The notes: generated from the sequence alone by a model not told the origin. A DNA stretch of 64,000 nucleotides from Bdellovibrionales bacterium (GCA_020628165.1 JAHDFM010000011.1:18969-82968), one strand, 5' to 3'. Positions 1 to 23,258 are shown, counted from the stretch's first letter. Translations and numbers: made by a program.

Positions 1-2
1 TA

Positions 3-662
3 GATAATTTTATCAATAAGCCAACAAACATCAAAATGTCTTCAGACTTCATTTATGGTGAGTTACCACTTGATTCACCTCTATTGTTTTGGTCATTTCC
101 AGATGATGACATTGAGCAGGTGGAAGTGGCTTTAGGTACGAACCCTGACAGTGAAATAGATAATTTTGTACCATGGGAAGAAGCCGACAGCCTAAGCTCT
201 CACAGAATTAAATTTTTAACAGGAATTGGAGAGTGTGTTTCTTATTATCCATCCATTCGATTAAAAGACAAATCTGGTAACATTTCTGCGCCATTAACGG
301 ATAGAGGTGGGTTTATTTGGGATAACTCAGCTCCGCAATTTAACGGTGATATTGTCATACTTGAACAAAGTAACAGTATCAATGAAAGCCCAAGATTTCA
401 ATGGCCAGAGGCTGAGGACTTGTGTGGAATTTCTTATTATGACGTGGCCGTGGGCACAACGCCAGGTGGATCAGATATTATTGACTACACTCGAATCCCA
501 GTGAATGTGAATGTTTTTGAGTATCAAATCACTCACTTGGTAGATGGTTTTGATATGCAGTTAGAGCTAGGGCAAAACTATTACCTATCCATTGTCGCAA
601 CGGATATTTCTAATAAAATTTCAAGTTTTATTATTTCTAACCCTTGGAGTGTATCGCCGTGA
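3..662 (+). CDS. C-terminal fragment of a secreted/surface repeat protein (frame open to the left window edge)
   Basis: No stop in this frame between nt 3 and 662, so the ATG at 36 is probably internal. The sequence looks like Ig/FN3-type surface repeats (..YDVAVGTTPGGSDIIDYTRIP..). No catalytic motif recognised. Confidence 0.45.
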   Translation, partial: DNFINKPTNIKMSSDFIYGELPLDSPLLFWSFPDDDIEQVEVALGTNPDSEIDNFVPWEEADSLSSHRIKFLTGIGECVSYYPSIRLKDKSGNISAPLTDRGGFIWDNSAPQFNGDIVILEQSNSINESPRFQWPEAEDLCGISYYDVAVGTTPGGSDIIDYTRIPVNVNVFEYQITHLVDGFDMQLELGQNYYLSIVATDISNKISSFIISNPWSVSP

Positions 663-2317
663 TATTGTCGAGTGAAAATGAGTTGAACACTCATGCAAAA
701 CAAATTCATGAATATAATCTCAAACACTTGGAAAGCATTCCAACACAATGGGCTCGGGTCGAGAACGCAATTAAAGATTTTTATGGGCTTGAAATTGATA
801 AATTTACTTTTGATATTAAATTGGCCTTTGTTGAGGCAGCCAATAATGTGATTCAGCACGCCCACAAATTAGTGCCAACTGATTTTCAGATTAAAATGTA
901 TTTAAAAACCGATGAAATAGAATTTTGGGTTTTTGACTACGGGAAAGGCTTTGATTTAAAAAGTAAAATAAAATGTGTCAGTACACTTCATGAAAACTCA
1001 AGGGGAGTTTATTTAATCAATTCAGCAGTTGATTCTCTTGATTATGTGAAAGGAAAGAAATGCAATATTCTTATTTTTAAGAAAAAAATAAATTTAAAAA
1101 ACAACTCTGATACAAAATTTCTAGATAAAAATAAAAGAAAATTTTTATTAGTTAACCTACAACAAGAAGAACAAGATTTTTTTGATGAATTTGCTCAAGA
1201 GAATAATTATAATGTACAAAACATAAATTGCTCTATTGATCTCGAGCAAGTTTTGTACTCTAACCTTTCTCTCGATTTACTGTTTGTTTATATTGAAGAT
1301 GAAGACCTTAGTAACTTTGAGATGATTCAACAGTTTAAAAAAAATACTAAAAATAAATTCATTCCAATCATAGCCCTGACAAAAAATAAAAAAATTGATG
1401 TGATGATTCAAAGCTTCTTATCTGGTTGCAATCAGTTCATAACACTCCCTTGTAATAAAATGGAGCTAAAATCTAAAGTGAGTTCTCTTTTGGAGCTTAA
1501 AGATAAAACAAGATATCTTGAAATCAGTGCTCAGCAAATGACGACACAGTTAGATGAAGCTAAGGCGTTACAAGTTGGAATACTACCATCTAAGAATGAA
1601 CTGATTCATGGTTGTGACTTTGATTACATATTTAAACCTTCTAGCTACGTTGGTGGTGATATGTTGAATTATTTCTCAGTGAATGAGAATATCTCTGCAT
1701 TTTATGTCGCTGACGTGTCTGGTCACGGAGTGGCCTCTGCAATGTTCTCTATCTGGTTGAACAAAATTTTGACACCTTCAATCAGTAAAAGTGGAATCAT
1801 TAAACAGCGGATTAATAAAAAGCCCTTTTATCAAGTGCGACAGCCGAGTGAAGTTTGTCATCAGCTAGATAAATTGATGGACGATTCACAAGAGCAGTAC
1901 CTCACCATGTTTTTTGGTTACATCGATCATCAAAAAAACACTTTGACATACTCTTGCTGTGGACATCCTCAGCCTTATGTTTTGAGAGGTAAAAAGCATA
2001 TTAAACTAAAATGTGAAAACCCACCGATTGGCATGGGACTCGGTCTAGACTTCAAAAATCATTCAATGAAATTAAAAGATCAGGATAAGATCTTTGTGTA
2101 TTCTGACTGTGTCGTAGAAACAAAATCTCCGGAGGGAGTGCTATTTGATAGCCATAATTTAGAGATTTTTTTAGACAGATCTGAAAAAGTCGGAACAGAG
2201 CAGCTTAATAGCTTAGTGAGTGTATTAAAAGCGTATTCCGGAGAAGAATCTTTTGAAGATGATCTTACAATTTTAAAAATTCATTTTAACAAGAAAAAGG
2301 AGAAGTCATGGAAGTAA
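644..2317 (+). CDS. Fused partner-switching protein: RsbW/SpoIIAB-like Ser kinase (HATPase) + degenerate receiver domain + PP2C/SpoIIE-type phosphatase
   Basis: 557-aa ORF. N-terminal ~150 aa carry anti-sigma-kinase-type motifs (EAANNVIQHAH, FDYGKGFD, SRGVYLINS). The middle ~130 aa have a receiver-like pattern. The C-terminal ~240 aa carry PP2C/SpoIIE motifs (GGDMLNYF, ADVSGHGVASAM, YSDCVVE, DDLTILKI). Start is uncertain: TTG 644, GTG 659 (GTGA overlap with the upstream stop) or TTG 665. Confidence 0.8.
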   Translation: MECIAVILSSENELNTHAKQIHEYNLKHLESIPTQWARVENAIKDFYGLEIDKFTFDIKLAFVEAANNVIQHAHKLVPTDFQIKMYLKTDEIEFWVFDYGKGFDLKSKIKCVSTLHENSRGVYLINSAVDSLDYVKGKKCNILIFKKKINLKNNSDTKFLDKNKRKFLLVNLQQEEQDFFDEFAQENNYNVQNINCSIDLEQVLYSNLSLDLLFVYIEDEDLSNFEMIQQFKKNTKNKFIPIIALTKNKKIDVMIQSFLSGCNQFITLPCNKMELKSKVSSLLELKDKTRYLEISAQQMTTQLDEAKALQVGILPSKNELIHGCDFDYIFKPSSYVGGDMLNYFSVNENISAFYVADVSGHGVASAMFSIWLNKILTPSISKSGIIKQRINKKPFYQVRQPSEVCHQLDKLMDDSQEQYLTMFFGYIDHQKNTLTYSCCGHPQPYVLRGKKHIKLKCENPPIGMGLGLDFKNHSMKLKDQDKIFVYSDCVVETKSPEGVLFDSHNLEIFLDRSEKVGTEQLNSLVSVLKAYSGEESFEDDLTILKIHFNKKKEKSWK

Positions 2318-2637
2318 ATATTAATGAGAGCACCAGTGCAACTGTCATTTATCTCAATGGATCTTTTGACGCTACTGTCAGTCGAGATGTGAGAGAAAAG
2401 TTTGATGGACTTATTTCGAAAGGATTACAAAACTTTATAGTGGATCTTGAGCAAGTTGATTTTATAGATTCATCGGCTTTAGGTGCGTTGGTTGGATTTT
2501 TTAAAAAAGTCCGAGTGGGGGAAGGTGATGTCAAACTAGCAAGGCTGTCTTCACAAATTTTAAAGATATTTGAGCTAACTCAATTAGACCAAGTCTTTGA
2601 AATATTGCCCTGGGATTATGCTAAAAAAATAGGTTAA
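2308..2637 (+). CDS. STAS-domain anti-sigma-factor antagonist (RsbV/SpoIIAA-like)
   Basis: 109 aa. Has the conserved phospho-serine motif DFIDSSALGAL. AAGGAG RBS lies before ATG 2308, and the ORF overlaps the upstream ORF by 10 nt (translational coupling). Confidence 0.85.
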   Translation: MEVNINESTSATVIYLNGSFDATVSRDVREKFDGLISKGLQNFIVDLEQVDFIDSSALGALVGFFKKVRVGEGDVKLARLSSQILKIFELTQLDQVFEILPWDYAKKIG

Positions 2638-2639
2638 CC

Positions 2640-4592
2640 TTGCTTTATGAAGTATTTGTTAGCTCTATTTACTTCGTAAAAATCATTATTTGTTTTTTTT
2701 GTGTCTTCTATTATCTGCCTAAAAAAGTGACCGATAATACCAAGATTTGTTTCAAAAAAAATAAATTCAATATAATTCTTACATTCGTTGCAGCGGCCTT
2801 AGTGATCTCACAGGTTTTGTCAGTATTGAAAATGTTAGAAACTTTTTCACTTATAGTCTGCCTTTGTGTTTTTAGTCTTGGATTGAGGCTGCAACTTAAA
2901 AAAGTAAATGTTTTTGATTTCTTTAATGAATTAAAAACCCGTTGTTACATAGAGATGTTCACTTATCTAGAGATGAAAAATTTTATGATGTACGTATTTA
3001 ATCGATTAACAAATTGGGCACGAGTGAAGTTACGGTGGGCCTCTTTTCAGGTTAACCCGTATCACATGCTCACTTTAGTGCCATTTGTATTGATTGGATC
3101 TTTTTATTTGCTTGAAAATTTAAATTCATACACAAATTCTGATCTTCAGCATATTCTTAATTATAAGAAAGTAGGATTAGGAAACTTATTTGGTTTGAAT
3201 CATTTTTCAATTGGAAACTATTTCTTCACAAACTTTATGTTAACCATTTTAAATATTGATATTGAGAAAGTATATTCTTTACTCATTTTAATTAATGCTG
3301 TTGTAAATATGTTTGTGGTCAATACAGTTCTTGCTAAACTTTTTGAATCTAAGTCTTTAGGAATAACAGGATTAGGTGTATTTATTGTCGGACTTTTCTC
3401 CTTTTCAAGTAGTTCAGGGCTGGTGTTTAACGAAGAGTTTAGTGTCAATCTCATGTTGGCCTCTGTTTTATTAATTAATGTTTATGAGTTAAGCAAAATT
3501 AGTGTTGTTCAGATAAAGGCTCTTAGAAAGACTGATTTAACTTTAAGTCTTGCCGTGATGTCTTTTTTAAGTTTGAAGTTAACCCTCTTATTTGCCATTG
3601 CTGCCATTGCTTATTTTTCATTAAAAACGGCACAAAAAGAGCTTTTGACTAAAAAGATCTATTCAAACATAGGCCTCGGATTTCTTCCATTGTTCCTTTT
3701 TAGTCTCTTACGTTATTTATTTGTCGATGGCTCATTGTTATTGGATTTAAAATCTGAGTTCTTTATAAAAGAAACGGCACAGGTTGGTTTGTTTTCAAAA
3801 TCAACCACTGTGTTTTATTTGTCATATATATTGAGTTTAGGATTGTTTTTAATCTCTAGCTCTATAACAGACTTTAAGAATAAAATAAGAATAGATGGTT
3901 TTATAAAATTTGTTTTTATTTTTAACACTGTATTATTTGTATTAGATAAGCTGGTTCCAACCGTTGTAGATATCAATCAGATTCTTAAAGAGCTCTGTGC
4001 AGTGAATGCCGTTGTTATTTCTATTTCTATTTATATAGTACTTAAATGCAAGGTATTTGCAGATTTAGTAAAACAACAAAAAAGAGCTATGCCGGCTCTG
4101 AGTTGCTTATTAATACTTAGCTATGTTTTGTATTCAAAGCCAAATTATTCGTATGCTATTAATAATGTTAAAGGCTATAAGTTTTCAAAGATTATAAATC
4201 GAATTAAGTATCAAAGCGTTCGACACTCATGGACAGTCATAGGAGAACATTCATTTTTTTCTTTAATCTACGGTAGTGGATATCATTTAAGCGTGAAAGA
4301 TTTTTTAGAAAAGTACCAAGCTAAGGAATATATTTGGGACCCATATGATCCTGAGACAACTATTGGGACTAATTATGTTTATTTTGTTTTAAACAAAAAT
4401 AAATTAGACCAAGACACAAAACAAGAAAAACTACTTAGAAACTGGATAGCTGAGTATGAGTTTCGGCATGAAGAGTTAGATCGATTCTATGAAGATGAAT
4501 CCTATGTCGTTTATCAGCTTTATCGGTCTCCAGAGTTTGAAAAGAAAATTAAAAAACAGATGTATTTAAAAAAAATAAATGAGGGCTCTTAA
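2640..4592 (+). CDS. Polytopic inner-membrane protein (roughly 12 hydrophobic segments) with a ~150-aa soluble C-terminal domain; function unknown, candidate polymerase or membrane glycosyltransferase
   Basis: 650-aa ORF, extremely hydrophobic for the first ~480 aa, packed tightly between the STAS gene and a GT4 gene. Only a TTG start is available at 2640. No family motif recognised. Confidence 0.55.
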   Translation: MLYEVFVSSIYFVKIIICFFCVFYYLPKKVTDNTKICFKKNKFNIILTFVAAALVISQVLSVLKMLETFSLIVCLCVFSLGLRLQLKKVNVFDFFNELKTRCYIEMFTYLEMKNFMMYVFNRLTNWARVKLRWASFQVNPYHMLTLVPFVLIGSFYLLENLNSYTNSDLQHILNYKKVGLGNLFGLNHFSIGNYFFTNFMLTILNIDIEKVYSLLILINAVVNMFVVNTVLAKLFESKSLGITGLGVFIVGLFSFSSSSGLVFNEEFSVNLMLASVLLINVYELSKISVVQIKALRKTDLTLSLAVMSFLSLKLTLLFAIAAIAYFSLKTAQKELLTKKIYSNIGLGFLPLFLFSLLRYLFVDGSLLLDLKSEFFIKETAQVGLFSKSTTVFYLSYILSLGLFLISSSITDFKNKIRIDGFIKFVFIFNTVLFVLDKLVPTVVDINQILKELCAVNAVVISISIYIVLKCKVFADLVKQQKRAMPALSCLLILSYVLYSKPNYSYAINNVKGYKFSKIINRIKYQSVRHSWTVIGEHSFFSLIYGSGYHLSVKDFLEKYQAKEYIWDPYDPETTIGTNYVYFVLNKNKLDQDTKQEKLLRNWIAEYEFRHEELDRFYEDESYVVYQLYRSPEFEKKIKKQMYLKKINEGS

Positions 4593-6217
4593 TGAATATA
4601 CTATTGTTGCACGGTTATGGTTTGGATAGATCAGGTTCTAATGTTTTTATTAAAAATTTGGCCAGAAATCTGTGTGATCAAGGTCATAATGTTCATTTGT
4701 TTTGCCAAGCAAGTCTAGAAGAAGCACAAAATGAATGCAACAGCTACTATGAATACAATAGCAAGAATAAAGTTAAATTTTTTGTTGAAGACAACAGCTT
4801 TCAATGTTCAGGTAACCTGTATATTCATAAAGCTGATATTTCGATATTACTTGTTTATAATATGGATAAGTACAATGGTTTTGAAAAAGTCACCACTTAC
4901 ACTCAGGCCAGTAAAGAAGAATTAGAGACTTATTTTGTTAAAAATGCTTCTTTGGTGCGTAAAATATGTATGCGCTATCAAATTGACATTGTTCTTGCTA
5001 ATCATATTTTAGGAATGCCAGAAGTTGCAAGGCGTGCCACACATCTAACGGGGGTTCCTTTTGTGATCAACCCACACGGATCTTCGATTGAATACAGTAT
5101 TAGGGGGAATGATCACTTTAAGAGTCTTTGTCGCGAAAGTTTTATTAGGGCCAAGGCCATTGTGGTTGGCAGCGAAGAGATGAAACGACGAATTGAAGAT
5201 ATATGGGGCACTAAATTCAATAAAAAGTTTATTCAGATAAATATGGGAGTGAACACCTCATTATTCAATGCAAATGATAAGATCACAGAACTGCAAGTCA
5301 CAGACAGAGAGTTTCTTGAAAAGAGGTATTCAAAAGAATTTTTTGATGAGTTTTATGAACAACAAAAGTCAGTCTCAGCTGAGAAGTTAAATGCTGCAAT
5401 GACTAAGAATCGGGATCATTTTTTACAAAACAAAAGTGACAAAGACTACACTGAGAAAGTCAATGCTAATAAGGCTTCAAAAAAAATTGTATATGCAGGT
5501 AAAATGATTGTTGGTAAGGGGGTGCATAACTTAATTTTTGCAGTGGCTCAGGCAAAAAATATAGAGTTAATGCTTGCAGGAGAAGGGACTTTTCGACCTT
5601 GCCTAGAGCTGTTGGTGCGTGCTCTGCAATATACTGACTATAATTTATTTAAGACAATTGTTACAAATGGTCCTTATTTTGATGGCAAGCCTAAAAAAGT
5701 GATGGCAAGCCTCGAAAGGTACCTAAATCAAGTAGAGTTCACCAAGTTGAGTGAAATGGCTCAACAGAACAATTTGATTGAACGAGTTAAATTTTTAGGC
5801 TTTCTAACTCATGAGCAATTGGTTTCTCTTTACAAAGTCTGTCACTACCTTTTTCTACCTTCTGAAGTGAAAGAGGCCTATCCACTTTGCCTTATTGAGG
5901 CAGCTGCCTGTGGACTTTTACCCCTTGCCACAGACACGGGTGGCAATAAAGAGTTTCTCAATCGTTTGTCAGCCAACTTATTCAAAGATGAAAAAAGTCT
6001 TGTCATTGCTTCTGAATCTAATGAAGTGGTGGGATCTATTCACAGTAAGATTGAGACCATTAAAGATGTTAATTTTTCCGCGGCAGAGATGTCTGAGTAT
6101 GTTCATAAAAACTACGATGTTAAAAATATAACGAAACAATATTTAAATGAATTTAGTAAACTAGTATATGGAGACAATGATGAAAGAGCAAATTTTAAAC
6201 AAGCTTCCTGTTTATAA
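4592..6217 (+). CDS. Glycosyltransferase, GT-B fold, family 4-like, with a long internal insertion
   Basis: ATG overlaps the upstream stop (TAATG). The C-terminal half has the GT4 signature region (..EAYPLCLIEAAACGLLPLATDTGGNKEF..). The N-terminus MNILLLHGYGLDRSGSNVF is paralogous to the ORF at 13387. Confidence 0.8.
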   Translation: MNILLLHGYGLDRSGSNVFIKNLARNLCDQGHNVHLFCQASLEEAQNECNSYYEYNSKNKVKFFVEDNSFQCSGNLYIHKADISILLVYNMDKYNGFEKVTTYTQASKEELETYFVKNASLVRKICMRYQIDIVLANHILGMPEVARRATHLTGVPFVINPHGSSIEYSIRGNDHFKSLCRESFIRAKAIVVGSEEMKRRIEDIWGTKFNKKFIQINMGVNTSLFNANDKITELQVTDREFLEKRYSKEFFDEFYEQQKSVSAEKLNAAMTKNRDHFLQNKSDKDYTEKVNANKASKKIVYAGKMIVGKGVHNLIFAVAQAKNIELMLAGEGTFRPCLELLVRALQYTDYNLFKTIVTNGPYFDGKPKKVMASLERYLNQVEFTKLSEMAQQNNLIERVKFLGFLTHEQLVSLYKVCHYLFLPSEVKEAYPLCLIEAAACGLLPLATDTGGNKEFLNRLSANLFKDEKSLVIASESNEVVGSIHSKIETIKDVNFSAAEMSEYVHKNYDVKNITKQYLNEFSKLVYGDNDERANFKQASCL

Positions 6218-8432
6218 GTTAGACTATATTGATTCAGAGTACTTAAGTAGTCATGAGTCAGACCATGTATATATTGATCTTTCAGACACAGATTTACTAG
6301 AAGTAGAAGATTTATTAACACTCAATAATATATATAGTTTGTGCACAGAAATGAACAAACAGGCCCATTTGATTGTGAATAAAAAATCGATTCTCTCAAC
6401 TCAGCTTGATTTTGAGCGCTTGCATCGAAAGTTTAATATCACTTACCAAGGTGAAGATTTATCAGAATTTGAACAAGAGTCTGAGTCCGTTGACATTGAA
6501 CTTTCAAATATCCCTCAAGACTGGAGGGATGATGTTGACCAGGTGATAGAGAAAATTGAAGCAAGTACCTATGAAAATGCACTTTTCATGTTCAAATGGA
6601 TCATCAATAATGAAAAATTTCTTTACTCTCAGAATTTAATATCTCCTTATATGGATATCATTCCAAAACTGATCATGAAATCTGATGAACGGAAATTAGT
6701 TTTCATCATTGAGTCTTTACCAGTTGGTCAAATCATTAAATTGTTTTTTGATGATTACACGATCATCCCTGATCAAAAAATAGCTAGGCTCTTTGATAAA
6801 ATGGATGATGAGCTTTTGGTGAAATTGTTCCAGAAAATGACCCTTGGAGTGGATTTACCTAGCCGATCTGGTGAAATTTTATCATTGATGGGCTCTAAGT
6901 TGAAGGCAAAGGTCATTAACCAATTATCATGCATTTCCATCCTTAAAATGTTTAAATTCGCTAACAATGTTCGTGTGATTGATGCTTTGATTTTATGCAT
7001 GTCTAAGAAGAAGGTTTTTGAGTTGTTTAAATTCATTGATCAGTCAGATGTCGAAAACAAAGACGATATGAAGTTTTATTTAGATTATGTTTCTATTCAT
7101 GACTTGGGATGTTTTTCAGGAAAAGAGGATGAATTTGATTTTGAACCTAACAACGTCTGGGTCAACCTCAATATTAATAGTTTCGACAAGTTATTCTTTG
7201 TTTTTTCTGGGCAAGGAAACAATGATGCAAATTTTTGTGATCATTTCACCGTTAGAAAAATACAAGAAAATATTGACTATGCCTATGGCAGAAAACGAGT
7301 GGATGTTCACCTTGTTGAGTTTGATAAAAGTCGCTTCAAAGCGGAGTGCTACAAGTCAGAAGCATTGAATACAAATTACCAGCAATTTTTAAGTTCTTAC
7401 TCAGGCTGTGATAGTTTGAGTAAGAATGATTTTAAAAATCTTGGCTTATTTCAGCTACAAACCAAAGCTCAAGAAAGAAACATAGATATAGCCATTAATG
7501 GCAATTTTTATTTTGATTACGGTCATCATTTATATGGTCAAAAATTAGGACTTCCATTGGAACATTCGCAAGGTCTTAATTTTGGAGATCCAGTAGGTTT
7601 ACTTATAAATAATTATAAAACATTGTCGCCTGCTATTTACAACAGAGCGACCTTTTTAGTGACGGAGGATGAAGACATTACCATCGATCGCGTGAAAGAG
7701 TCTGAGATCACAGTTTCGGGTGAGCACCTTATATGGAATAAAGAAAATACGCAGGATGTGAGCCTTGATGATGTCGTTTTCTATAATAATATCTTTGGTT
7801 TCAAAACTCCAATAAACCCAGGTCGCTTAGAATTAATAATTACTAAGGATAAGATTCTAAAAGTTAAAGAGGGAGGAGGAGCCCTTATACCTTTTACCGG
7901 CTTTGTAGTGAGTATCGATAAGAGCAAATATAAGGGCAAGTTTAGACAAGACGACCTTGTTGTTTATAACAATTACTATAAAAGCAAAAAAATCAAAGAA
8001 GCCATAGGTTGTGGACCGTTACTGGTGCAAAATGGAGAAATAGAAATTAACTTCAACAAAGAAGACTTTGGCAAACAAGATAGCAGTGTCATGTCCTTTT
8101 TTCTACCTCGTCAATTTGAAAAATATGAAGCCGCAAGAAGTTTTATTGGCTTGCGTGGTGATAAAGTTGTCATTGGTGCTGTCTCTGGCTGTTCTTACGG
8201 AACTGGCTTACAAGAGACTTCAACTGGAATGACTTTTTCTGAATTGGCCATGTTTTGTCGTGATATTGGCTTAGAGACGGCCATGGGGCTGGATGGAGGT
8301 GGGTCAAGTTCGATTGTGACCAAACAAGAGGGAGACTTTAAGATCCTAAACACTCCCACAGGTGGTAAAGATGTTCCTCGCGGAACAGAGCGCTTTATAT
8401 CAACGTCTTTGATGTTTCAATTGAAGGAGTGA
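6168..8432 (+). CDS. Protein with a C-terminal phosphodiester glycosidase (NAGPA / DUF2233-like) domain; the ~430-aa N-terminal region is unassigned
   Basis: The C-terminus shows the family hallmark ..FIGLRGDKVVIGAVSG..GMTFSELAMFCRDIGLETAMGLDGGGSSSIV.. No obvious signal peptide. Several in-frame ATGs at 6168, 6177 and 6180 all overlap the upstream gene. Confidence 0.65.
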   Translation: METMMKEQILNKLPVYKLDYIDSEYLSSHESDHVYIDLSDTDLLEVEDLLTLNNIYSLCTEMNKQAHLIVNKKSILSTQLDFERLHRKFNITYQGEDLSEFEQESESVDIELSNIPQDWRDDVDQVIEKIEASTYENALFMFKWIINNEKFLYSQNLISPYMDIIPKLIMKSDERKLVFIIESLPVGQIIKLFFDDYTIIPDQKIARLFDKMDDELLVKLFQKMTLGVDLPSRSGEILSLMGSKLKAKVINQLSCISILKMFKFANNVRVIDALILCMSKKKVFELFKFIDQSDVENKDDMKFYLDYVSIHDLGCFSGKEDEFDFEPNNVWVNLNINSFDKLFFVFSGQGNNDANFCDHFTVRKIQENIDYAYGRKRVDVHLVEFDKSRFKAECYKSEALNTNYQQFLSSYSGCDSLSKNDFKNLGLFQLQTKAQERNIDIAINGNFYFDYGHHLYGQKLGLPLEHSQGLNFGDPVGLLINNYKTLSPAIYNRATFLVTEDEDITIDRVKESEITVSGEHLIWNKENTQDVSLDDVVFYNNIFGFKTPINPGRLELIITKDKILKVKEGGGALIPFTGFVVSIDKSKYKGKFRQDDLVVYNNYYKSKKIKEAIGCGPLLVQNGEIEINFNKEDFGKQDSSVMSFFLPRQFEKYEAARSFIGLRGDKVVIGAVSGCSYGTGLQETSTGMTFSELAMFCRDIGLETAMGLDGGGSSSIVTKQEGDFKILNTPTGGKDVPRGTERFISTSLMFQLKE

Positions 8433-8433
8433 C

Positions 8434-10044
8434 ATGAGTGAGGTTTTAGAGCAGGAGACCATTGATAAAAAGATTGAGGAATTATCTGACTTTGTCATAG
8501 AAACTGCTGAAAAACCCATGAGTTCTATGGCCGTGGCTGCTTTATTAGAGAGTCGTGGCTTGCGTGACGTCGATGCTATTGAAAAGTTCAATTGTAAAAA
8601 TATTTTTGACCTTGCTGATATTGTCTATCAACAAGTTAAGCAGAGGTTGTATGATGACTTCAAAACAACGGCCAGTAAAATACAAAAAGAAAAATTATTA
8701 TTTACGCTAAAAAGGTTTTTTCTACTTTATGGCAAAGGTATTCTCTTTGCTGCACCTATGGTGGGGCAATTGTTCTCTATTCTTTACTTTAGGTACTCAC
8801 TATGGGCATGGATGGACTTTTCTGTGATGCAAGCGTCTATAGTTGCGATTGCCACATTGTTTAGTTTTATTTTCACTGGTGGGTTAGCTCAGATCATTGG
8901 TCGTGAAGGTATTTTTTATAGTGGGCAAAAAAACCCTTATTTGATGAATAAGGTGTGTTTGAAGCTTATTGCTTTTGGCGTGGCCATAGCCACTGTTTTT
9001 TCAGTGGTTGTATTTTTATCTAATATTGTATTTGGATTTTTTTCTACTCAGAATTATTTAATTTTTTTACTGTACTACAACTTATTAACATACTTGTGGC
9101 TGATATTTTCAGTTCTTTTTATGTTGGAGTTTAATTTAGCGATTTTACTGTCTACAGTCTTTGGCACTCTCATTGTTCATGCAGTTATGATTTCTAAGTG
9201 GAGTAACATATATTTGGCTCATGCTTGTGGGTTGTCGGTGGCGACTATAACTGCTTTGCTTTTTTATTATTGGGTTTACAAGAAAAAGATCAAACAAATG
9301 GATGAGAAGCTCTATCATTCAAAATTACCTAGACGAAGCGTTTTAGTCTATATTGTTGAACCCTTTATGATCTTTGGAACTTTTTATTTTTCTTTTTTAT
9401 TTGTAGATAGAATCGTTGGCTGGTCTGCTGGAACATTTAAACAACCGTTGCCAATTTGGTTTCGAACTCCCTATGAGCTAGGTATGGATTGGGCCTTAAC
9501 GGGACTTTTGATCACTTCTGCTGTTTTAACTTATACGGTTCACCAATTCAATATGCGCTTAATACCTATACAACAATCTATTAAGGCTGTTGATTATGTA
9601 ACTTTTAACAAGCACTTCAAAGGCTTTTTTTATCAACAAATGATTATGATTTGCGTGGTGAGTTTGATGAGCACTTTTTTTGTCTATTTCGGAGCACTTG
9701 CAATTAAGAATAACGTGAATTATTTAGAGGTGGAAGAATTTTTCTCAAGTGGAATCACTTATTTTACCTTTTGGTTTGCTTCTTTTGGGTACAGTTTTTT
9801 AATCATAGCTCAAATGTGTGCCTTGTTTTTCTTTTCTCTAGCAAAAACACAAATAGTTATCAAAAACATAGCCATTGCTCTCGTTGCCAACATAATGATT
9901 GGCTACATTTTAAGTCGAACGATTGCTTACGAATACAGTGTTGTGGGTTTGTTTTTTGGATCACTAATTTATTTACTATTAATGGTGAGGAGTTCGAAAA
10001 AAATGATTGATAAGTTGGATTATCAATATTATTCGGCATTTTGA
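8434..10044 (+). CDS. Polytopic membrane protein, possible PelG-like exopolysaccharide export component, with a ~95-aa cytoplasmic N-terminal extension
   Basis: 536 aa, AAGGAG RBS, at least 10 hydrophobic segments. The segment ..FSFIFTGGLAQIIGREGIFYSG.. resembles the PelG motif ..LILTGGLQLLFTRFVSDRLFE.. as I recall it. A PelF-like gene lies two ORFs downstream. Family assignment is tentative. Confidence 0.45.
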   Translation: MSEVLEQETIDKKIEELSDFVIETAEKPMSSMAVAALLESRGLRDVDAIEKFNCKNIFDLADIVYQQVKQRLYDDFKTTASKIQKEKLLFTLKRFFLLYGKGILFAAPMVGQLFSILYFRYSLWAWMDFSVMQASIVAIATLFSFIFTGGLAQIIGREGIFYSGQKNPYLMNKVCLKLIAFGVAIATVFSVVVFLSNIVFGFFSTQNYLIFLLYYNLLTYLWLIFSVLFMLEFNLAILLSTVFGTLIVHAVMISKWSNIYLAHACGLSVATITALLFYYWVYKKKIKQMDEKLYHSKLPRRSVLVYIVEPFMIFGTFYFSFLFVDRIVGWSAGTFKQPLPIWFRTPYELGMDWALTGLLITSAVLTYTVHQFNMRLIPIQQSIKAVDYVTFNKHFKGFFYQQMIMICVVSLMSTFFVYFGALAIKNNVNYLEVEEFFSSGITYFTFWFASFGYSFLIIAQMCALFFFSLAKTQIVIKNIAIALVANIMIGYILSRTIAYEYSVVGLFFGSLIYLLLMVRSSKKMIDKLDYQYYSAF

Positions 10045-10049
10045 GGGTT

Positions 10050-11663
10050 ATGGACTATAAGAAGTTTTTAGACACAAGTTTAAATGCCAATCAAATTTGG
10101 TTGGACCTCGTCGAGCACTTAGTTCAGTCTTACAAGTTGCAGTACATTAAAGTCTTTGAAGAGAGTGGCGAAGAGCTTAGTTTAGAATATTCTTATGAAA
10201 ATCCAATCAAAGAGTTTCGCGTTGATACCAAATTTCAAAAATTTCATTTAGATGACATCAATGACCTTTCGACGTTTAATAATTCTTTTACAGAGAATGA
10301 TCAGCAGTTTTTTCATGAGTCTTACAAAAAAGATGTGTTTAACAAAGCTCACAGCTTGAACAATTGTTTGATTTTAAAGGATCAATTCTATCGGGTTGTT
10401 TTTTGTTTTCACGATGGGTTTTTCTTGTGGAAACATAAGAGAGAGCTACAAAAACACGCTCAGTTCATTATTTTTTCGTACCACAATTATAAATTATTTA
10501 TGCGTAATCGTAAGGTGCTTCAAAAAGTCTATGACAATCAAGTTTTAAATAAGATTTCAAAGGCCACGATTGTTTCGAACAAACCTATATTGCAGTTTAT
10601 CCTGGATAAAGTTTGCAGTGCTCTCCATTTTGATTTTTGCTATTTAATTAATGCTGGTAACAAGACGGTCTTGTCTCAAAGTTTAAATGCTAAAGACATT
10701 GATGTCTTTAGTTTTTTAGAAATTGATAGTAACGGTGTGCAAGTGATTTCATCTGTGGATATCATTGAGCGTGGTTACGCTTCCATATTGATTTTACCTG
10801 TAGATAAATCTATGAAAGCCTACTTGGTGATGCTGGTTGAAAAAAATAAAAAAATAGTGACTGATAAACAAGTGAAAAGCTTGGAATACTATTATCAGTT
10901 ATTGATTAAGTACTTAAATAAGAAAAACGAAATAAAGAATTTTATTAAAAAGTATGAGGAGCTTCTGCTTGATTTAATCAATGTCTATGAGGCCCACTCT
11001 AATGAGCTTGTTGGTCACCACAACAGAGTGGCACTATTCACCAATTTGATAGCAAAAAAAATAAATATGAAGTTTTCTGACCGCATGATTTTAGTTAAAG
11101 CGGCCAAATTGCACGACATTGGTATGTTAAACATTCAAAAAGACAATAATATCATTGCGGATAACTTCAATCATCCTGTTGTAGGCAGTCAGGTGTTTTC
11201 TGACTTGAGTAATTATGCTGAGGTGAGTGATTTGATATTAAAGCACCATGAAAATTGTCAAGGTTATGGTTATCCACAAAGCCTTAAGCTCAAAGAAAGT
11301 GAAGTGAGTGCGCAAATTTTATCATTGGTTGAGTATTTAGTAGAGTTTGTTTTCCATAATATTAAAGGGAAACAAGTAAGTATTGCGAAAACGGTCAGTG
11401 AGTTAACAAAAAGCAATCTCTACAGTGAAAAAGTACAATCCGCAGCTGTTGATGTCCTGAAGTCCATCGAAATCCAAGGAAAGAAGCAAAGTATCTGTAA
11501 GTCTATGTTTGGGGCAAGATCACGTGTGTGCCAAGGGTGTCCTGCTTTAAATTCAAAGAAACGATGTTGGGAGTTTAATGAAGACGAACGCAATTGCATC
11601 AATCATGGCTGTAAATCATGTAAGGACTGCATTGTCTTTAAAACCTGGGGAGGGACGTCATAA
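10050..11663 (+). CDS. HD-GYP domain signalling protein with an unassigned (possibly GAF-like) N-terminal ~300 aa and an 8-Cys C-terminal tail
   Basis: HD-GYP motifs are present: HHNRVALF, AAKLHDIGM, HHENCQGYGYPQSL. C-terminal tail: CKSMFGARSRVCQGCPALNSKKRCWEFNEDERNCINHGCKSCKDCIVF. ATG 10050 was preferred over the TTG at 10041. Confidence 0.75.
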   Translation: MDYKKFLDTSLNANQIWLDLVEHLVQSYKLQYIKVFEESGEELSLEYSYENPIKEFRVDTKFQKFHLDDINDLSTFNNSFTENDQQFFHESYKKDVFNKAHSLNNCLILKDQFYRVVFCFHDGFFLWKHKRELQKHAQFIIFSYHNYKLFMRNRKVLQKVYDNQVLNKISKATIVSNKPILQFILDKVCSALHFDFCYLINAGNKTVLSQSLNAKDIDVFSFLEIDSNGVQVISSVDIIERGYASILILPVDKSMKAYLVMLVEKNKKIVTDKQVKSLEYYYQLLIKYLNKKNEIKNFIKKYEELLLDLINVYEAHSNELVGHHNRVALFTNLIAKKINMKFSDRMILVKAAKLHDIGMLNIQKDNNIIADNFNHPVVGSQVFSDLSNYAEVSDLILKHHENCQGYGYPQSLKLKESEVSAQILSLVEYLVEFVFHNIKGKQVSIAKTVSELTKSNLYSEKVQSAAVDVLKSIEIQGKKQSICKSMFGARSRVCQGCPALNSKKRCWEFNEDERNCINHGCKSCKDCIVFKTWGGTS

Positions 11664-11680
11664 GTCAAATATCAGTATTA

Positions 11681-13327
11681 ATGGCCAATGAAGGAACGTA
11701 CCCTTATATGGGCGGGGGTGTGAGCACCTGGTGCCATATTCTCTGTGAAAATCTTGAAGACATCGATTGGAAGATTTTCGCTGTTGTTGCCGACCCTTAT
11801 GTGACCGATCGCTATAAAACGGATCAACTACCACAGATCAAAGAAAAGATCATCATTCCATTGTGGGGGTTTGAAGAGACAGCTGAGTACACTGACACCA
11901 GGCCATTTCCACAGATCTATGATAATAAAGTGCGCACCACTAATGATGCTATTGAAACTGAGTTTGTTGCATTGTTTGAAAGTTTTTTGAGTGGCATGGA
12001 TGAAGATGATCACTCTATGATTGAGATGGGACACGTGATCACGTCGATTCACGACTATTTTCAGAACTACGATTACAACATCACGATGAAATCAGAACTT
12101 GCTTGGAACACCTTTAAAAATTATTTTTTAAAACGAGCCTCCGAACAAGAAATGATCAAGCTGGATCCGCCAAGTTTGTTTGACCTAACCACTTGTATGC
12201 GCTGGTTGTACAATATGTTTGTTCCGGTCGTTGCCAATGTTCCAGTCACAGATATCACTCACGCCACCATCGCATCTTCAACTGCGATGGCTTGTATCAT
12301 TTCTAAGGTGAAGTACGGAACTCCAATGGTTTTGACAGATCATGGAGTCTACGCTCGTGAAAGATACATTGCTTGTTCATCAGCTCCTTTTAGTTCATTT
12401 TGTAAACGCTTTCTAGCCCGTTTAGCCCTTTTATTTTCAAAACTCTGTTATTATTACGCCGACGTCATCACTCCCTGTGCCCACTTTAATGCTCGTTGGG
12501 AGCTACCTTTAGGTGGGTATGCCAGTCGTTTAGAAATCAATAACTTCAAAGAGTGGGAAAACACGGGAGTGGTGCCAAATCTAAAAGAGTTTCCTCACTT
12601 AGAGCCCTGTTACCGAGCTTTGGTGGACTATAATTTAATTCCTAGTTACGACAGTCAGACTGAGTTCCCATGGATTCGAACCATTTACAATGGTGTGGAC
12701 ACCGATCGCTTTAAGCCAGGGCCTAAGCCGGAGCACTTACGTGGTACACCGACGGCTGTTGCTCTTGCGCGTGTATTTCCCTTAAAAGATGTTTTGACAA
12801 TGATTCGCTCATGTAAAGTGGCAAAGCAATCGATCGATAATATAAAGTACATTGTCTACGGCTCTTTAAAAGCGGACCCTGAATACGTACAAAAATGCAA
12901 TGATCTAATTGCAGAGCTAAAACTGGAAGATAATTTTGATTTAGCAGGTTACCACTCAAAACCCAATGAAGCTTTTTGGGAGGGAGATGTGAGTGTGCTG
13001 TCGAGCATTTCAGAGGGCTTTCCTTTTACGGTGCTTGAGAGCATGGCTGCAGGTGTGCCTGTTGTAGGAACGGATGTGGGTGGCTGTAAGGAGGCCATAG
13101 GTATCGGTGATGCTGCTTGTGGAATTGTCGTGCCTCCAAGAGATCCTGAAAGTTTTGGCAACGCTGTAGTTAAACTATTAACTGACTCAGACCTTAGGCT
13201 GTATTACTCTAAAAAAGGTCGAGAAAGAGTTCTTAAACTTTTTCAAACAGACATTTCTGTTAAAGCTTATAGAAACGTTTATCAGTACCTCTATGAACGC
13301 TTTTCAAAGTCTAGAAATAATAAATAA
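11681..13327 (+). CDS. pelF: PelF-like glycosyltransferase (DUF3492-type N-terminus + GT4 C-terminal domain)
   Basis: The N-terminus MANEGTYPYMGGGVSTWCHIL matches the PelF-family start (EG[ST]YPYV.GGVS.W.H.L, from memory). The C-terminal GT4 region is SISEGFPFTVLESMAAGVPVVGTDVGGCKE. Confidence 0.7.
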   Translation: MANEGTYPYMGGGVSTWCHILCENLEDIDWKIFAVVADPYVTDRYKTDQLPQIKEKIIIPLWGFEETAEYTDTRPFPQIYDNKVRTTNDAIETEFVALFESFLSGMDEDDHSMIEMGHVITSIHDYFQNYDYNITMKSELAWNTFKNYFLKRASEQEMIKLDPPSLFDLTTCMRWLYNMFVPVVANVPVTDITHATIASSTAMACIISKVKYGTPMVLTDHGVYARERYIACSSAPFSSFCKRFLARLALLFSKLCYYYADVITPCAHFNARWELPLGGYASRLEINNFKEWENTGVVPNLKEFPHLEPCYRALVDYNLIPSYDSQTEFPWIRTIYNGVDTDRFKPGPKPEHLRGTPTAVALARVFPLKDVLTMIRSCKVAKQSIDNIKYIVYGSLKADPEYVQKCNDLIAELKLEDNFDLAGYHSKPNEAFWEGDVSVLSSISEGFPFTVLESMAAGVPVVGTDVGGCKEAIGIGDAACGIVVPPRDPESFGNAVVKLLTDSDLRLYYSKKGRERVLKLFQTDISVKAYRNVYQYLYERFSKSRNNK

Positions 13328-13386
13328 ATAATATTTATTTGACACTGTGGTGCCGCTTTTTCATACTAAATGAACGGAGACCAAGT

Positions 13387-14805
13387 ATGGATTACAGAAA
13401 ACATATATGTTTGTTGCACAGCTATGGAGTGGACGGTTCGGGGAGCTCTGTTTACACAATTGATTTAGCCAACGAGTTGGTAAAGTTTGGTTATCGTGTC
13501 AGTGTCATTTGTCACGAAACAAGGCTGAGTCACCTAAAGAACAACAACAAACAATTAAATCTTAAGAATGTTCATATTCCCTACTGCGAGACGAGAAAAA
13601 GTGAATTTGTGACTGTCTTTAGTTTATTCACTAAAAACACATTTGTTGCCTATGATCGTCCAGAACTGTCGAACACAAAACCAATCAATGAGGCCTCTCA
13701 CGATGAGATCATGCAACACACGGATGAGATTTATAAATTTTTAAATTATTTAAATTGCAAAAATCCAATAGAGCAAATTTTAGTGAATCACTTAAGTGTT
13801 TTGAACTTAGTTGCCAGTCAATTTGGCAAAAAAAACAATGTGCCATTCAAAACAATTGTGCATGGAACTTTTCTTGAATATGCCATCAATCGCAATTTGT
13901 ATTTTAAAAAGTTAGTGACTTATAGTTTAGAGCAGACCAGTGCTATTTTTGTTTTGAATGAATCCGTGAAAAGTCGCTTCTTAAAAACGTTTGATCGCTT
14001 CACAGAAAAAGTTAAAATTGTACCACCAGGTCTGAATCAAACTTATTTTGACACCAACCAAGTCAGTCCACAGGTCCTAGCCAGTGAACATAAAGTGATA
14101 TCCTACGTCGGACGTATCTCTTTAGATAAAGGCCTACATTGTTTATTGGTTATTTTACCTTTGTTGTCTCTTAAGCATAAGTTCACACTTAAAATAGCAG
14201 GGGACGGCCCTGATTTACCGTTTTTAAAAGATACAATGAACTTGCTGTCTCAGGGCCGCTTTAGAGAGTATTATGAAAAGTGTGAAGAATACATCGGCGA
14301 GACGAGAGATAAAGACATTGCGCGACTTTTGCTCAATCCGTTAAAAAATTATTTAGCAAAGTATGAACTGAATAAACTAAACACCATTGACTTTGAGCTC
14401 AATGTTGATTGGTTAGGACATTTGTCTAAACAGGGTTTGGAAAAACTATATAAAAAGTCCGAGTACAATGTTTTAACTTCGCTTGTTCCTGAAGCCCATC
14501 CGTTGGTTATTTGTGAAGCTTTAGCATGTGGGACAATGACCATTGCTAAAAATTTTTCTGGAATCACAGAGCTTTACTCAGACCTAGATGACTACTTATC
14601 CGGCTCTGAAGATAAAGATTATCAAATAGAAGATGATCATACCACTTTCATTGAAGAACTTTTTAAAGTTTGTGATCGTTACTTGCAAAAAAACACACTG
14701 AAAGAGTTGAGTCCACAATTGAAAGAGTTTGCGAAAAAGTCATACTCTTGGTCGTCGCTTGCTAGGAAGATACTGTATTCAGAAAATGAAACAATGTTTG
14801 TTTAA
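13387..14805 (+). CDS. Glycosyltransferase, GT4-like, paralog of the ORF at 4592
   Basis: ATG 13387 is preceded by ACGGAGA. The N-terminus HICLLHSYGVDGSGSSVYT parallels ILLLHGYGLDRSGSNVF of the 4592 ORF. The C-terminal region is ..VPEAHPLVICEALACGTMTIAKNFSG.. Confidence 0.75.
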   Translation: MDYRKHICLLHSYGVDGSGSSVYTIDLANELVKFGYRVSVICHETRLSHLKNNNKQLNLKNVHIPYCETRKSEFVTVFSLFTKNTFVAYDRPELSNTKPINEASHDEIMQHTDEIYKFLNYLNCKNPIEQILVNHLSVLNLVASQFGKKNNVPFKTIVHGTFLEYAINRNLYFKKLVTYSLEQTSAIFVLNESVKSRFLKTFDRFTEKVKIVPPGLNQTYFDTNQVSPQVLASEHKVISYVGRISLDKGLHCLLVILPLLSLKHKFTLKIAGDGPDLPFLKDTMNLLSQGRFREYYEKCEEYIGETRDKDIARLLLNPLKNYLAKYELNKLNTIDFELNVDWLGHLSKQGLEKLYKKSEYNVLTSLVPEAHPLVICEALACGTMTIAKNFSGITELYSDLDDYLSGSEDKDYQIEDDHTTFIEELFKVCDRYLQKNTLKELSPQLKEFAKKSYSWSSLARKILYSENETMFV

Positions 14806-14825
14806 GTATTTTACAGGGAGGTAAA

Positions 14826-15611
14826 ATGTCAAAATTTATGGGAATAATACTTGCGGCTGGAGCGGGAACGAGAATGCAGTCAACTCTTCCTAAAGTGCTT
14901 CATGAAGTCAATGGCAAAAGCATGGTGCAAAGTTCTATCGATGCTCTTAAGAAAGCTGGAGCTGAAGAAATTGTTGTTGTTGTCGGTTACAAAAAAGAAA
15001 TGGTCATGGAAAAACTGGGGGATCAGGTCAAGTACGCTGTTCAAGAACAGCAGCTAGGAACGGGGCATGCTGTAAAAGCAGCTGCTGAACATATTAAAAA
15101 CTACGATGGTAAAGTGGTCGTTGTTTATGGTGATAACCCACTTCTTAAAGTTGAAACCATCCAAAAATTAGTGACCTCTGTGGACGAGGAGCATAGCTGT
15201 AGCTTATTGACCATATCATTATTAAACCCTTCGCAGGCAGGGCGTATCGTTCGAGATAAGTCTGGGCGATTTTTAAAAGTCATAGAAGAGCAAGATTGCA
15301 GTAAGGAACAAAAAAAGATTTCCTACATAAACTGTGGCTCTTACTGTTTTAAAAGTAATTTGTTGTTAACGGCACTTGATCAGTTAAAATCAAACAATAG
15401 TCAAGATGAGTATTACCTGACTGATGTGCCAGGTTATTTTGTAGAGTCGGGAGAGAAAGTTCAGTTAGTGGAAGCAACGGATGTTTTTGAAATACTCGGC
15501 ATAAATGACAAGAAGCATTTAGAGTTTGCAGAAACTGCTCAAACTATTGAGTATGCCGAGGCTTTCTATGAAATAATTGATGCCGCCAGCAAACTGAAAA
15601 AGGCCGAGTGA
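14826..15611 (+). CDS. Sugar-1-phosphate nucleotidyltransferase resembling the N-terminal uridyltransferase half of GlmU, without the acetyltransferase half
   Basis: GGGAGG RBS. ILAAGAGTRMQSTLPKVLHEVNGKSMV matches the GlmU N-terminal signature. At only 261 aa there is no room for the left-handed beta-helix acetyltransferase domain. Confidence 0.8.
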   Translation: MSKFMGIILAAGAGTRMQSTLPKVLHEVNGKSMVQSSIDALKKAGAEEIVVVVGYKKEMVMEKLGDQVKYAVQEQQLGTGHAVKAAAEHIKNYDGKVVVVYGDNPLLKVETIQKLVTSVDEEHSCSLLTISLLNPSQAGRIVRDKSGRFLKVIEEQDCSKEQKKISYINCGSYCFKSNLLLTALDQLKSNNSQDEYYLTDVPGYFVESGEKVQLVEATDVFEILGINDKKHLEFAETAQTIEYAEAFYEIIDAASKLKKAE

Positions 15612-15615
15612 ATTT

Positions 15616-16383: not shown

Positions 16384-16484
16384 CCGCAGTTTGGGCTTAT
16401 CCCACGATTAAAAAAGTATCACAGATCACTTTGGGCGCATTTTAGTCTTCTTGAGTTTATCACCCTCATTTTGAGAAAAGTACT

Positions 16485-16510
16485 GTCATCCTGAGGGAGA
16501 GCCGAAGGAT
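16485..16510 (+). repeat. Copy (diverged) of the dispersed GTCAYCC..GAAGGA repeat
   Basis: GTCATCCTGAGGGAGAGCCGAAGGAT lies in the convergent gap between the receiver gene and the TPR/barrel gene. An upstream half-unit TATCACCCTCATTTTGAG is also present. Confidence 0.55.
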
Positions 16511-16571
16511 ACAAGCAAAGACCATATTGTTAGTATGACGGTGTTATTTATTCTAAACAAAAGAATAATTT

Positions 16572-17999: not shown

Positions 18000-18088
18000 A
18001 TAATAAATAAATAATAATTATTTAATAAAGAATGATCGATCTAATTCGTTATTCTTCTTGAAAACTAGATGTAGGTGCAGCTCACAGT

Positions 18089-19198: not shown

Positions 19199-19221
19199 GA
19201 GAAAACAAAGGAGTTTAATTG

Positions 19222-21533: not shown

Positions 21534-21660
21534 AGTGTTAATTGAACTCTAATTGTACTTACTTTGGTGAACAACTACGTCGAAGCTCAAAGATGTACAA
21601 ACACAAAGTGAAAGCCCCATGCAGCGCCGGAGTTTCATTTGCAAAAAAAGAAAAATGCGA

Positions 21661-21776
21661 AAAGACGTCAAAGACATTTTTTCCGCACGGAGTTCCGCGG
21701 GTGCGCTGCTCGGCCAAAGGGCGAGCGGTGCTGCCCGAGGCTGTTTGAGTACGGAAAGAATGTCTTTGACGTCTTT
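21661..21776. repeat. Hairpin element, copy 1: 25-bp basal stem enclosing a 66-nt GC-rich conserved core
   Basis: 21661-21685 (AAAGACGTCAAAGACATTTTTTCCG) pairs with 21752-21776 (CGGAAAGAATGTCTTTGACGTCTTT), giving 25 bp with one G-T. The core is the reverse complement of the core at 57689-57752. It lies between convergent genes (GT4 end 21533, lpdA end 21836). Confidence 0.75.
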
Positions 21777-23242: not shown

Positions 23243-23258
23243 AATATTTGTATCTCCG

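Follow-up and report, generated by a model that had tools for sequence, protein, structure and literature searches.

A 64,000-nucleotide (nt) stretch of the genome of an uncultured Bdellovibrionales bacterium (GCA_020628165.1 JAHDFM010000011.1:18969-82968; analyzed at its full length and called the window below) encodes near its 5′ end an enzyme in which a Ser kinase domain of the RsbW/SpoIIAB type, a receiver (REC) domain, and a Ser phosphatase domain of the SpoIIE/PP2C type are fused in this order. The gene for a small STAS protein, the predicted substrate, follows directly. Here, we propose that the two genes form a partner-switching module of the type of SypE and SypA of Vibrio fischeri, an assignment that we hold to be fairly likely, and that the switch probably controls the adjacent Pel-like polysaccharide locus. 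The fused architecture, the STAS partner, the absent sigma factor, and the polysaccharide context are already known from SypE/SypA, and the finding does not amount to a new kind of system. What is new is an aspartate-less receiver in this class of enzyme, the association with a PelF-type locus, and a conserved membrane protein of no recognized family encoded after the STAS gene. The features are listed in Table 1.

Table 1. Features of the window related to the proposed switch (positions in nt from the first letter of the window; aa, amino acids; TM, transmembrane)
Feature	Position	Strand	Basis
Fused Ser kinase/pseudo-receiver/PP2C phosphatase gene	644..2317	+	ORF call, Pfam
RsbW/SpoIIAB-type (HATPase_c_2) Ser kinase domain, aa 28–150	725..1093	+	Pfam, above cutoff
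Predicted aspartate-less pseudo-receiver, aa 164–312	1133..1579	+	Four alignments, AlphaFold secondary structure
SpoIIE/PP2C Ser phosphatase domain, aa 352–548	1697..2287	+	Pfam
STAS-only protein, 109 aa, predicted substrate	2308..2637	+	Pfam, TIGR00377
208-aa ORF, function unassigned	36..662	+	Without Pfam or NCBIfam match; coupled to the fused gene
Polytopic membrane protein, 650 aa, ~11 TM-like segments, soluble C-terminal domain of ~165 aa	2640..4592	+	Hydropathy; without Pfam or NCBIfam match
Pel-like polysaccharide locus, presumed output	4592..21533		Pfam, NCBIfam, synteny with related locus L023

Domain organization of the fused enzyme

The fused enzyme has 557 aa if translation starts at TTG 644, as the original prediction had it, and 552 aa if it starts at GTG 659. 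The longer open reading frame (ORF) is present as described, but the GTG is more probably the start, because the database gene call has 552 aa, a GGAG sequence lies 9 nt upstream of the codon, and the GTG shares the four letters GTGA with the stop codon of the upstream 208-aa ORF. With this overlap at its 5′ end and a 10-nt overlap with the STAS gene at its 3′ end, the gene is coupled on both sides.

The three domains first read by eye in one protein were recovered by profile searches, the two outer ones above the Pfam cutoffs. HATPase_c_2, the family of the anti-sigma kinases, matches aa 53–146 (E = 5.7e-13, 49.4 bits, cutoff 27.4), and SpoIIE matches aa 352–548 (E = 2.5e-33). In the alignments, the kinase motifs are intact in the N-box (E64/N68/H72), the G1 box (D98-G100-G102), and the G2 box (R120-G121), and their residues recur throughout the family and in SypE, where N52 corresponds to N68. 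The metal-binding Asp residues of PP2C (D339, D357, D488, D539, and D540) occupy columns that are invariant in 46 sequences, and they are also kept in SypE. Judged by these residues, the kinase and the phosphatase are both predicted to be catalytically intact. The NCBIfam matches of the enzyme (RsbW, Pseudomonas RssB, and SiaA) are all sub-threshold, with the RsbW and SpoIIAB scores far under their cutoffs. Sequence and fold searches of the Protein Data Bank (PDB) returned Pseudomonas aeruginosa RssB (a REC-PP2C protein; 3eq2/3f7a; Foldseek E = 3e-24), SiaA, SpoIIE, and Rv1364c, and no solved structure with the complete three-domain arrangement.

The receiver domain

Pfam Response_reg matches aa 179–279 with 20.5 bits (E = 5.5e-4), under its cutoff of 30.2. 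A hidden Markov model (HMM) built only from the canonical receivers of the family gives 35.9 bits (E = 3e-13) and places the receiver at aa 164–281. Four of the five catalytic residues are lost, with N171-L172 in place of the acidic pair, Y216 (codon at nt 1289–1291) in place of the acceptor Asp, and L268 in place of the Lys; T246 is the sole active-site residue retained. The register is concordant in four alignments, namely, MAFFT with 10 relatives, MAFFT with 13 same-order proteins (SypE among them), BLASTP against SypE, and the family HMM. The BLASTP alignment sets Y216 opposite SypE D192, which the alignment indicates to be the acceptor Asp of that protein.

An AlphaFold2 model of the fused enzyme alone, built on a 46-sequence alignment, has a mean predicted local distance difference test score (pLDDT) of 89.1 and a predicted template modeling score of 0.74, and the pLDDT of the receiver block is 76–96. 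The model contains a complete (βα)5 fold at aa 165–312 (β1, 165–170; β3, 212–216; β4, 242–246; β5, 264–267), and the four substituted or retained positions are located at the ends of β1, β3, β4, and β5, which are the places of a receiver active site. The α5 helix (272–312) extends as a long helix into the phosphatase. The original prediction, made by hand alignment, had described a receiver without the acidic pair and with Tyr at the acceptor position. The four alignments and the confident receiver fold of the model agree with it, no phospho-acceptor Asp being retained; the loss of the conserved Lys is an addition to that description.

In pseudo-receivers, the fold is kept, and the acceptor Asp or other catalytic residues are lost (PMC12632262, PMC4395418). 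According to the definition in PMC12632262, the window receiver is classified from the alignments and the model as a predicted pseudo-receiver of the aspartate-less class. It is not a canonical PF00072 receiver, having one of the five residues and a score below the gathering threshold. With the Mg-binding pair gone together with the acceptor Asp and the Lys, phosphorylation of this domain by a histidine kinase or an Hpt protein should be ruled out. The family-HMM score and the high-confidence model argue for ongoing selection on the receiver fold. FrzS and REC1 of ShkA are aspartate-less receivers that likewise have kept the fold and lost the catalytic residues, but none of the described pseudo-receivers found in the searchable literature lies between the Ser kinase and the PP2C of a partner-switching enzyme, and no paper found there joins partner switching with a pseudo-receiver. 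The dead receiver is the sole element of the fused enzyme that is unreported in the earlier systems.

The STAS partner

The translationally coupled STAS protein with a DSS motif had been recognized from the sequence, and both points are borne out. An AAGGAG ribosome-binding site precedes its ATG, and the first 10 nt of its gene are shared with the 3′ end of the fused gene. The protein matches Pfam STAS (E = 3.4e-19) and TIGR00377, the anti-sigma-antagonist family (71.8 bits, cutoff 53.45). The phospho-site motif is D54-S55-S56, in which S55 (nt 2470–2472) is the predicted phospho-acceptor; D54 and S55 are invariant among the STAS partners of the relatives. The motif agrees with the SypA fragment ...AFLDSSGIGAIV, whose S56 is the phospho-site of SypA. 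Adjacency of the STAS gene and the fused gene is found also at the related loci L003, L004, L005, L023/L024, L026, and L028.

Kinase-first relatives and their gene neighborhoods

An exhaustive profile search returned 455,643 proteins at E ≤ 1e-3, mostly via the PP2C domain. Among the best 150 representatives, classified with local HMMs, 112 are REC-PP2C proteins, ~22 have the REC-PP2C-kinase order of HsbR, and 9 are kinase-first. Duplicated proteins of ~1000 aa with the order REC-PP2C-REC-PP2C-kinase (e.g., P0127, P0129, P0131, and P0143) account for 6 of the best 150 representatives and seem to be a tandem form of the HsbR arrangement. The kinase-first order is combined with a canonical receiver (45–102 bits in Pfam) in P0003, P0121, P0126, P0128, P0134, and P0148. 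Degenerate receivers were found in three proteins: that of the window (NL, Y, T, and L), P0002 (SL; part of the receiver is deleted, and there is no Pfam receiver match), and P0268 (EP, N, V, and V). The window protein, P0002, and P0268, with dead receivers, and P0003, P0121, and P0270, with canonical ones, are mutual closest relatives (29–35% identity), and the nearest full-length relatives of the window protein (30–35% identity) are all kinase-first. Bootstraps of neighbor-joining (NJ) trees within this six-member clade are weak and differ between the domains, and the receiver residues may have been lost once or several times. A metagenome scan gained only the already known contig of P0002 and distant REC-PP2C proteins.

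Dead-receiver versions with an adjacent STAS gene are kept in three diverged lineages. The enzyme of L026 is one of those with a dead receiver, and its gene is flanked by a DUF3492-GT4 gene immediately upstream and by the start of a STAS gene downstream. At L023, the fused enzyme has a canonical receiver and is 31% identical to that of the window, and its STAS protein is 59% identical. Beside this switch are homologs of the 10-TM protein (47%, E = 1e-145), the PelF-like glycosyltransferase (67%), the nucleotidyltransferase (NTP-transferase; 56%), the GT4 protein, and the HD_5 protein of the window. In the window itself, GT4 and PelF genes lie in the same operon as the switch, downstream of it. 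The adjacent polysaccharide locus had been named as the likely output in the original prediction, and this proposal gains weight from L023, where even so distant a relative shows the pair linked to these polysaccharide genes. L005, L028, and L029 encode more distant kinase-first proteins with other neighbors, and L005 and L028 still have the adjacent STAS gene.

Searches of the window ORFs of at least 120 aa and of the small ORFs in the gaps yielded no sigma-factor, histidine-kinase, or Hpt domain. The earlier remark that no sigma factor is in sight holds for the 61 kb downstream of the pair, but it is weaker evidence than it appeared, since HsbR and CrsR bind an RpoS that is encoded elsewhere (PMC6482189). 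No sigma-factor gene is next to the pair at the related loci either, the single one seen being rpoN, ~4.4 kb downstream in L029. As to the phosphorelay input, an Hpt-bearing gene adjoins the fused gene at three loci with a canonical receiver: sypF by sypE, a hybrid histidine kinase with Hpt together with an H-NOX gene in L023, and a stand-alone Hpt gene in L027. A rule that a canonical receiver comes with an adjacent Hpt or kinase gene was dropped, because it applies to three of the six canonical loci with visible flanks, and was kept as a hint. Since this adjacency is not universal, little can be concluded from the lack of a kinase gene beside the window gene. The H-NOX (HNOB) gene and the hybrid kinase gene of L023 (7462–9853, minus strand) are divergent from the fused gene, and a second hybrid kinase gene, of the PilJ type, is located further upstream; this arrangement suggests that the L023 polysaccharide locus is under nitric oxide- or gas-responsive control.

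Comparison with SypE/SypA and other partner switches

V. fischeri SypE has the order kinase-REC-PP2C and both phosphorylates and dephosphorylates the STAS protein SypA; the two proteins belong to the syp polysaccharide locus and are not known to have a sigma partner (PMC3610818, PMC10120452, PMC8256260). Unphosphorylated SypA promotes biofilm formation with the syp polysaccharide post-transcriptionally, via a non-sigma target (PMC3610818, PMC10120452, PMC8256260), and N52 of SypE is required (PMC3610818). The sypE sequence was obtained from A. fischeri ES114 chromosome II using the N52A primer of PMC3610818 as a DNA probe. A Vibrio match (H1) was considered as SypE and rejected, being a 417-aa REC-PP2C protein without a kinase domain. 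Pfam placed HATPase_c_2 at aa 13–134, Response_reg at aa 145–254 (91 bits), and SpoIIE at aa 315–503 of SypE. The kinase-first order, which the original prediction had explained as a permuted HsbR-like switch, is therefore the published architecture of SypE.

The two systems share an N-terminal Ser kinase, a central receiver, and a C-terminal PP2C in the enzyme, with the N-box Asn (N52 in SypE and N68 in the window) and the PP2C Asp residues kept. Both STAS proteins are single-domain and have the D-S-S motif (S56 in SypA and S55 in the window), and both pairs lie among polysaccharide-locus genes without a known sigma partner. They differ in the receiver, which is canonical in SypE (E-D, D192, S, and K) and has N-L, Y216, T, and L in the window. 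SypE is adjoined by the Hpt-bearing hybrid kinase SypF, whereas the window contains no kinase or Hpt gene. The STAS gene of the window stands directly after the enzyme gene, whereas sypA of V. fischeri is several genes upstream of sypE, and the polysaccharide genes are PelF-type in the window and syp-type in V. fischeri.

HsbR/HsbA of P. aeruginosa and CrsR/CrsA of Shewanella oneidensis control the biofilm lifestyle, and their STAS partner is phosphorylated on the conserved Ser (PMC6482189). HsbR and CrsR contain the same three domains in one protein and have a STAS partner, as in the window, but in the order REC-PP2C-kinase, which had been correctly stated for HsbR (PMC6482189). They have a working receiver, which gets its input from HptB, and a kinase domain that doubles as an anti-sigma factor for RpoS; their genes are located outside polysaccharide loci. 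The window protein does not belong to the HsbR/CrsR group, as it is kinase-first, its receiver is dead, and no Hpt gene is in the window.

In RsbW/RsbU/RsbV and SpoIIAB/SpoIIE/SpoIIAA of Bacillus, enzymes of the same families act through the same STAS phospho-Ser chemistry. Unlike in the window, these systems have no receiver, and the kinase is a protein distinct from the phosphatase; it acts as an anti-sigma factor, with the sigma gene located next to its own. The original prediction took such separation as the normal state. This is true for RsbW/RsbU, but the fused proteins SypE, HsbR/CrsR, and Rv1364c are well known. Rv1364c of Mycobacterium tuberculosis (3ke6, matched by sequence and fold) resembles the window protein in having an RsbU-type PP2C and an RsbW-type kinase in one polypeptide, and differs from it in the order PAS-PP2C-kinase-STAS, with the substrate fused in and no receiver. 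In the HenR/All4160 system of Anabaena PCC 7120, whether STAS is phosphorylated depends on a kinase and a REC-PP2C phosphatase, as modeled for the window, and the STAS domain directly controls a polysaccharide-synthesis enzyme (a glycosyltransferase) without a sigma factor. There, unlike in the window, the kinase and the phosphatase are separate, and STAS is part of the glycosyltransferase polypeptide; the receiver is apparently canonical.

Proposed mechanism

By analogy with SypE/SypA, the kinase domain would phosphorylate S55 of the STAS protein, the phosphatase domain would remove the phosphate, and the unphosphorylated STAS protein would be the active form. Active STAS would raise polysaccharide production post-transcriptionally through a non-sigma target, possibly the downstream 650-aa membrane protein or another enzyme of the Pel-like locus. 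Because the receiver is dead, the balance between kinase and phosphatase is not expected to be set by a phosphorelay. The level of phosphorylated STAS might be set instead by a bound partner or metabolite, by the ATP/ADP supply to the kinase, or by the metal supply to PP2C. The pseudo-receiver is most likely kept as a structural hinge, since its α5 continues as a long helix into PP2C; it might in addition provide a surface for docking or for binding a ligand.

Several observations weigh against the assignment to the SypE/SypA type. The BLASTP alignment of the window enzyme with SypE (21% identity, E = 1e-6) is confined to the receiver and PP2C and leaves the kinase domains out. SypE is outside the best 150 matches of the exhaustive search and is a long-branch outgroup in the NJ trees. 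With such low similarity, a common origin of the fusion is plausible at most, and the function is well grounded by analogy. The kinase and phosphatase activities, the phospho-site of STAS, and the direction in which the switch works are predictions throughout. The 650-aa membrane protein is absent from L023, and L005, L028, and L029, which have canonical receivers, carry no polysaccharide, Hpt, or kinase genes nearby. Finally, only 643 nt upstream of the fused gene are visible, and a sigma partner may be encoded elsewhere.

Alternative explanations

The last point leads to the alternative with the most weight, which we still regard as unlikely: a true anti-sigma switch, in which the RsbW-type domain would sequester a sigma factor encoded elsewhere, STAS would release it, and the locus would be controlled transcriptionally. 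HATPase_c_2 is the anti-sigma kinase family, which the N-terminal domain does match, as had been anticipated, and the RsbW and SpoIIAB models are hit below threshold. HsbR and CrsR set a precedent with an RpoS that they bind though it is not encoded adjacently (PMC6482189), and the view is limited to 64 kb of one contig with the short upstream flank. Against these points, sigma domains are absent from the 61 kb downstream and from the genes next to the pair at related loci (the rpoN gene of L029 is ~4.4 kb off). In SypE, the only studied protein of this domain order, STAS is the downstream component, and its effect lies below transcription. The conserved linkage to polysaccharide enzymes also fits a local target.

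A more specific proposal, which at present is a rather doubtful one, assigns a positive function to the dead receiver. It would have been repurposed as a non-phosphate sensor, in which a small molecule or a protein partner tips kinase versus phosphatase, and STAS would directly gate the adjacent membrane protein of no recognized family. The small molecule could be cyclic di-GMP (c-di-GMP), as in the pseudo-receiver of ShkA, and the locus encodes an HD-GYP-like protein; the protein partner could be the atypical response regulator of the locus.

It is improbable that the enzyme is a decaying or locked regulator, which has lost its phosphorelay input and is frozen, for example, kinase-on like unphosphorylated SypE, as a constitutive brake or an incipient pseudogene. 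The loss of four of the five receiver residues and the partial deletion of the receiver in P0002 would agree with decay, and natural sypE frameshift alleles that alter biofilm output exist in V. fischeri (bioRxiv 10.1101/471292). However, the ORF is intact and coupled on both sides, all the catalytic residues of the kinase and PP2C are kept, and the receiver still reaches 35.9 bits against the family HMM and gives a high-confidence model. Three diverged lineages keep a dead receiver with an adjacent STAS gene, and the pair would be pointless if STAS were permanently phosphorylated.

An independent circular permutation of the HsbR family, as the original prediction had it, is very improbable. 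The three domains are the same, the architecture of HsbR is confirmed (PMC6482189), and its order is the more frequent one among the best 150 representatives (~22 versus 9). On the other hand, the kinase-first order is common to SypE and at least eight other representatives with canonical receivers, which puts the window protein in an existing group and not in a one-off permutation, and the nearest relatives over the full length all have this order. That the receiver is still a phospho-acceptor, with the alignment a few residues off (E218, D219, E220, or D221 of the acidic run after Y216 as the acceptor) or with Tyr216 itself modified, is scarcely credible even though the Pfam match is weak and begins only at profile position 13, because the four alignments and the model set Y216 at the C-terminal end of β3 with no gap from β3 through α3, and with the Mg-binding pair and the Lys missing too, as in the pseudo-receiver definition (PMC12632262), the phosphotransfer chemistry would fail whichever residue faces the pocket.

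Polysaccharide locus and neighboring genes

The presumed output of the SypE/SypA-type module begins within the operon of the switch itself. The genes from 36 to 16383 are all on the plus strand with gaps of ≤20 nt. After the STAS gene, they encode the ~11-TM membrane protein, a GT4 protein, a NAGPA-domain protein, a 10-TM protein, an HD_5 protein, PelF, a second GT4 protein, an NTP-transferase, and an atypical response regulator, in this order. A TPR protein (minus strand), a 9-TM protein, an epimerase, and a second DUF3492-GT4 protein follow. The PelF-type glycosyltransferase (11681–13327) matches NF038011 PelF with 168.5 bits (cutoff 100). No gene of the locus has a Pfam or NCBIfam match to PelA–PelE or PelG, including the c-di-GMP receptor PelD. 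Three polytopic membrane proteins without a Pfam or NCBIfam family are encoded at 2640–4592, 8434–10044, and 18089–19198 (all plus strand), with ~11, 10, and 9 TM-like segments, respectively; they may stand in for the missing PelD/E/G-type functions.

The first of these, the 650-aa protein, is homologous to the post-STAS gene product in L003 (E = 6e-20 and 5e-8) and weakly to that in L004 (E = 0.006), so that its homologs follow STAS in two or three of the closest loci. Database searches with the single sequence and with a two-sequence profile matched the query alone, and a single-sequence AlphaFold model had a pLDDT of 39 and was unusable. The protein is a candidate for the STAS target or for a component of the polysaccharide machinery.

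The response regulator inside the polysaccharide operon (15616–16383, plus strand, 255 aa) has a receiver that passes Pfam with 44.9 bits; on visual inspection, D-N takes the place of the expected DD pair, and Cys that of the conserved Thr. Its C-terminal ~120 aa belong to no family, and it has no homolog in L023. Two HD_5 (HD-GYP-like) proteins, at 10041–11663 (plus strand) and 36614–37264 (minus strand), have a sub-cutoff match to the c-di-GMP phosphodiesterase part of the NCBIfam NosR model. The one in the polysaccharide locus has a 300-aa N-terminal region without an assigned function, where its L023 counterpart has a GAF domain.

Upstream, the coupling of the 208-aa ORF to the fused gene places the operon start at or before the edge of the window, 643 nt being visible 5′ of the fused gene. 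This ORF has no homolog at any of the related loci examined, and by eye it contains two internal repeats of ~100 aa with a motif of the type ...VA(L/V)GT.P(D/G)... The counts of a promoter and terminator scan were not above those of shuffled sequence, and Rfam gave zero matches.

The G+C content is 0.32–0.38 in window positions 1–20000 and 0.42–0.45 in the sucA-sucB-lpd region (22000–28000). Low G+C is common in surface-polysaccharide clusters, and that of the polysaccharide locus is compatible with horizontal acquisition. A GC-rich element of ~130 nt occurs in two inverted copies, 21654–21781 (plus strand) and 57659–57784 (minus strand), which are 76–79% identical and have no Rfam match. Each copy folds as a single hairpin of ~120 nt (minimum free energy, −75.9 and −83.3 kcal/mol; z-scores, −8.5 and −9.5), and the outer stems diverge between the copies yet stay paired. 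The first copy lies between convergent gene ends, directly after the polysaccharide locus. Farther downstream are a 1099-aa protein with three Laminin_G_3 domains (39830–43129, minus strand), a 1343-aa protein without any family (47387–51418, plus strand), and several ORFs of 465–711 aa without a family at 58–63 kb.

Biological implications

To our knowledge, SypE/SypA is among the best-studied partner switches whose output is not a sigma factor, although what SypA acts on is yet to be identified. The way in which pseudo-receivers are switched is likewise unsettled (PMC12632262). The relatives described here provide a natural comparison set, with the same enzyme, STAS protein, and polysaccharide genes and a receiver that works in some genomes and is dead in others, and this comparison could show how a SypE-type enzyme behaves once its phosphorelay input has been removed. 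The conserved gene order from STAS to the membrane protein offers a concrete candidate for a STAS target. If the receiver has indeed been repurposed as a sensor and STAS gates this membrane protein, the target class of SypA-type STAS proteins would turn out to be part of the apparatus that makes or exports the polysaccharide.

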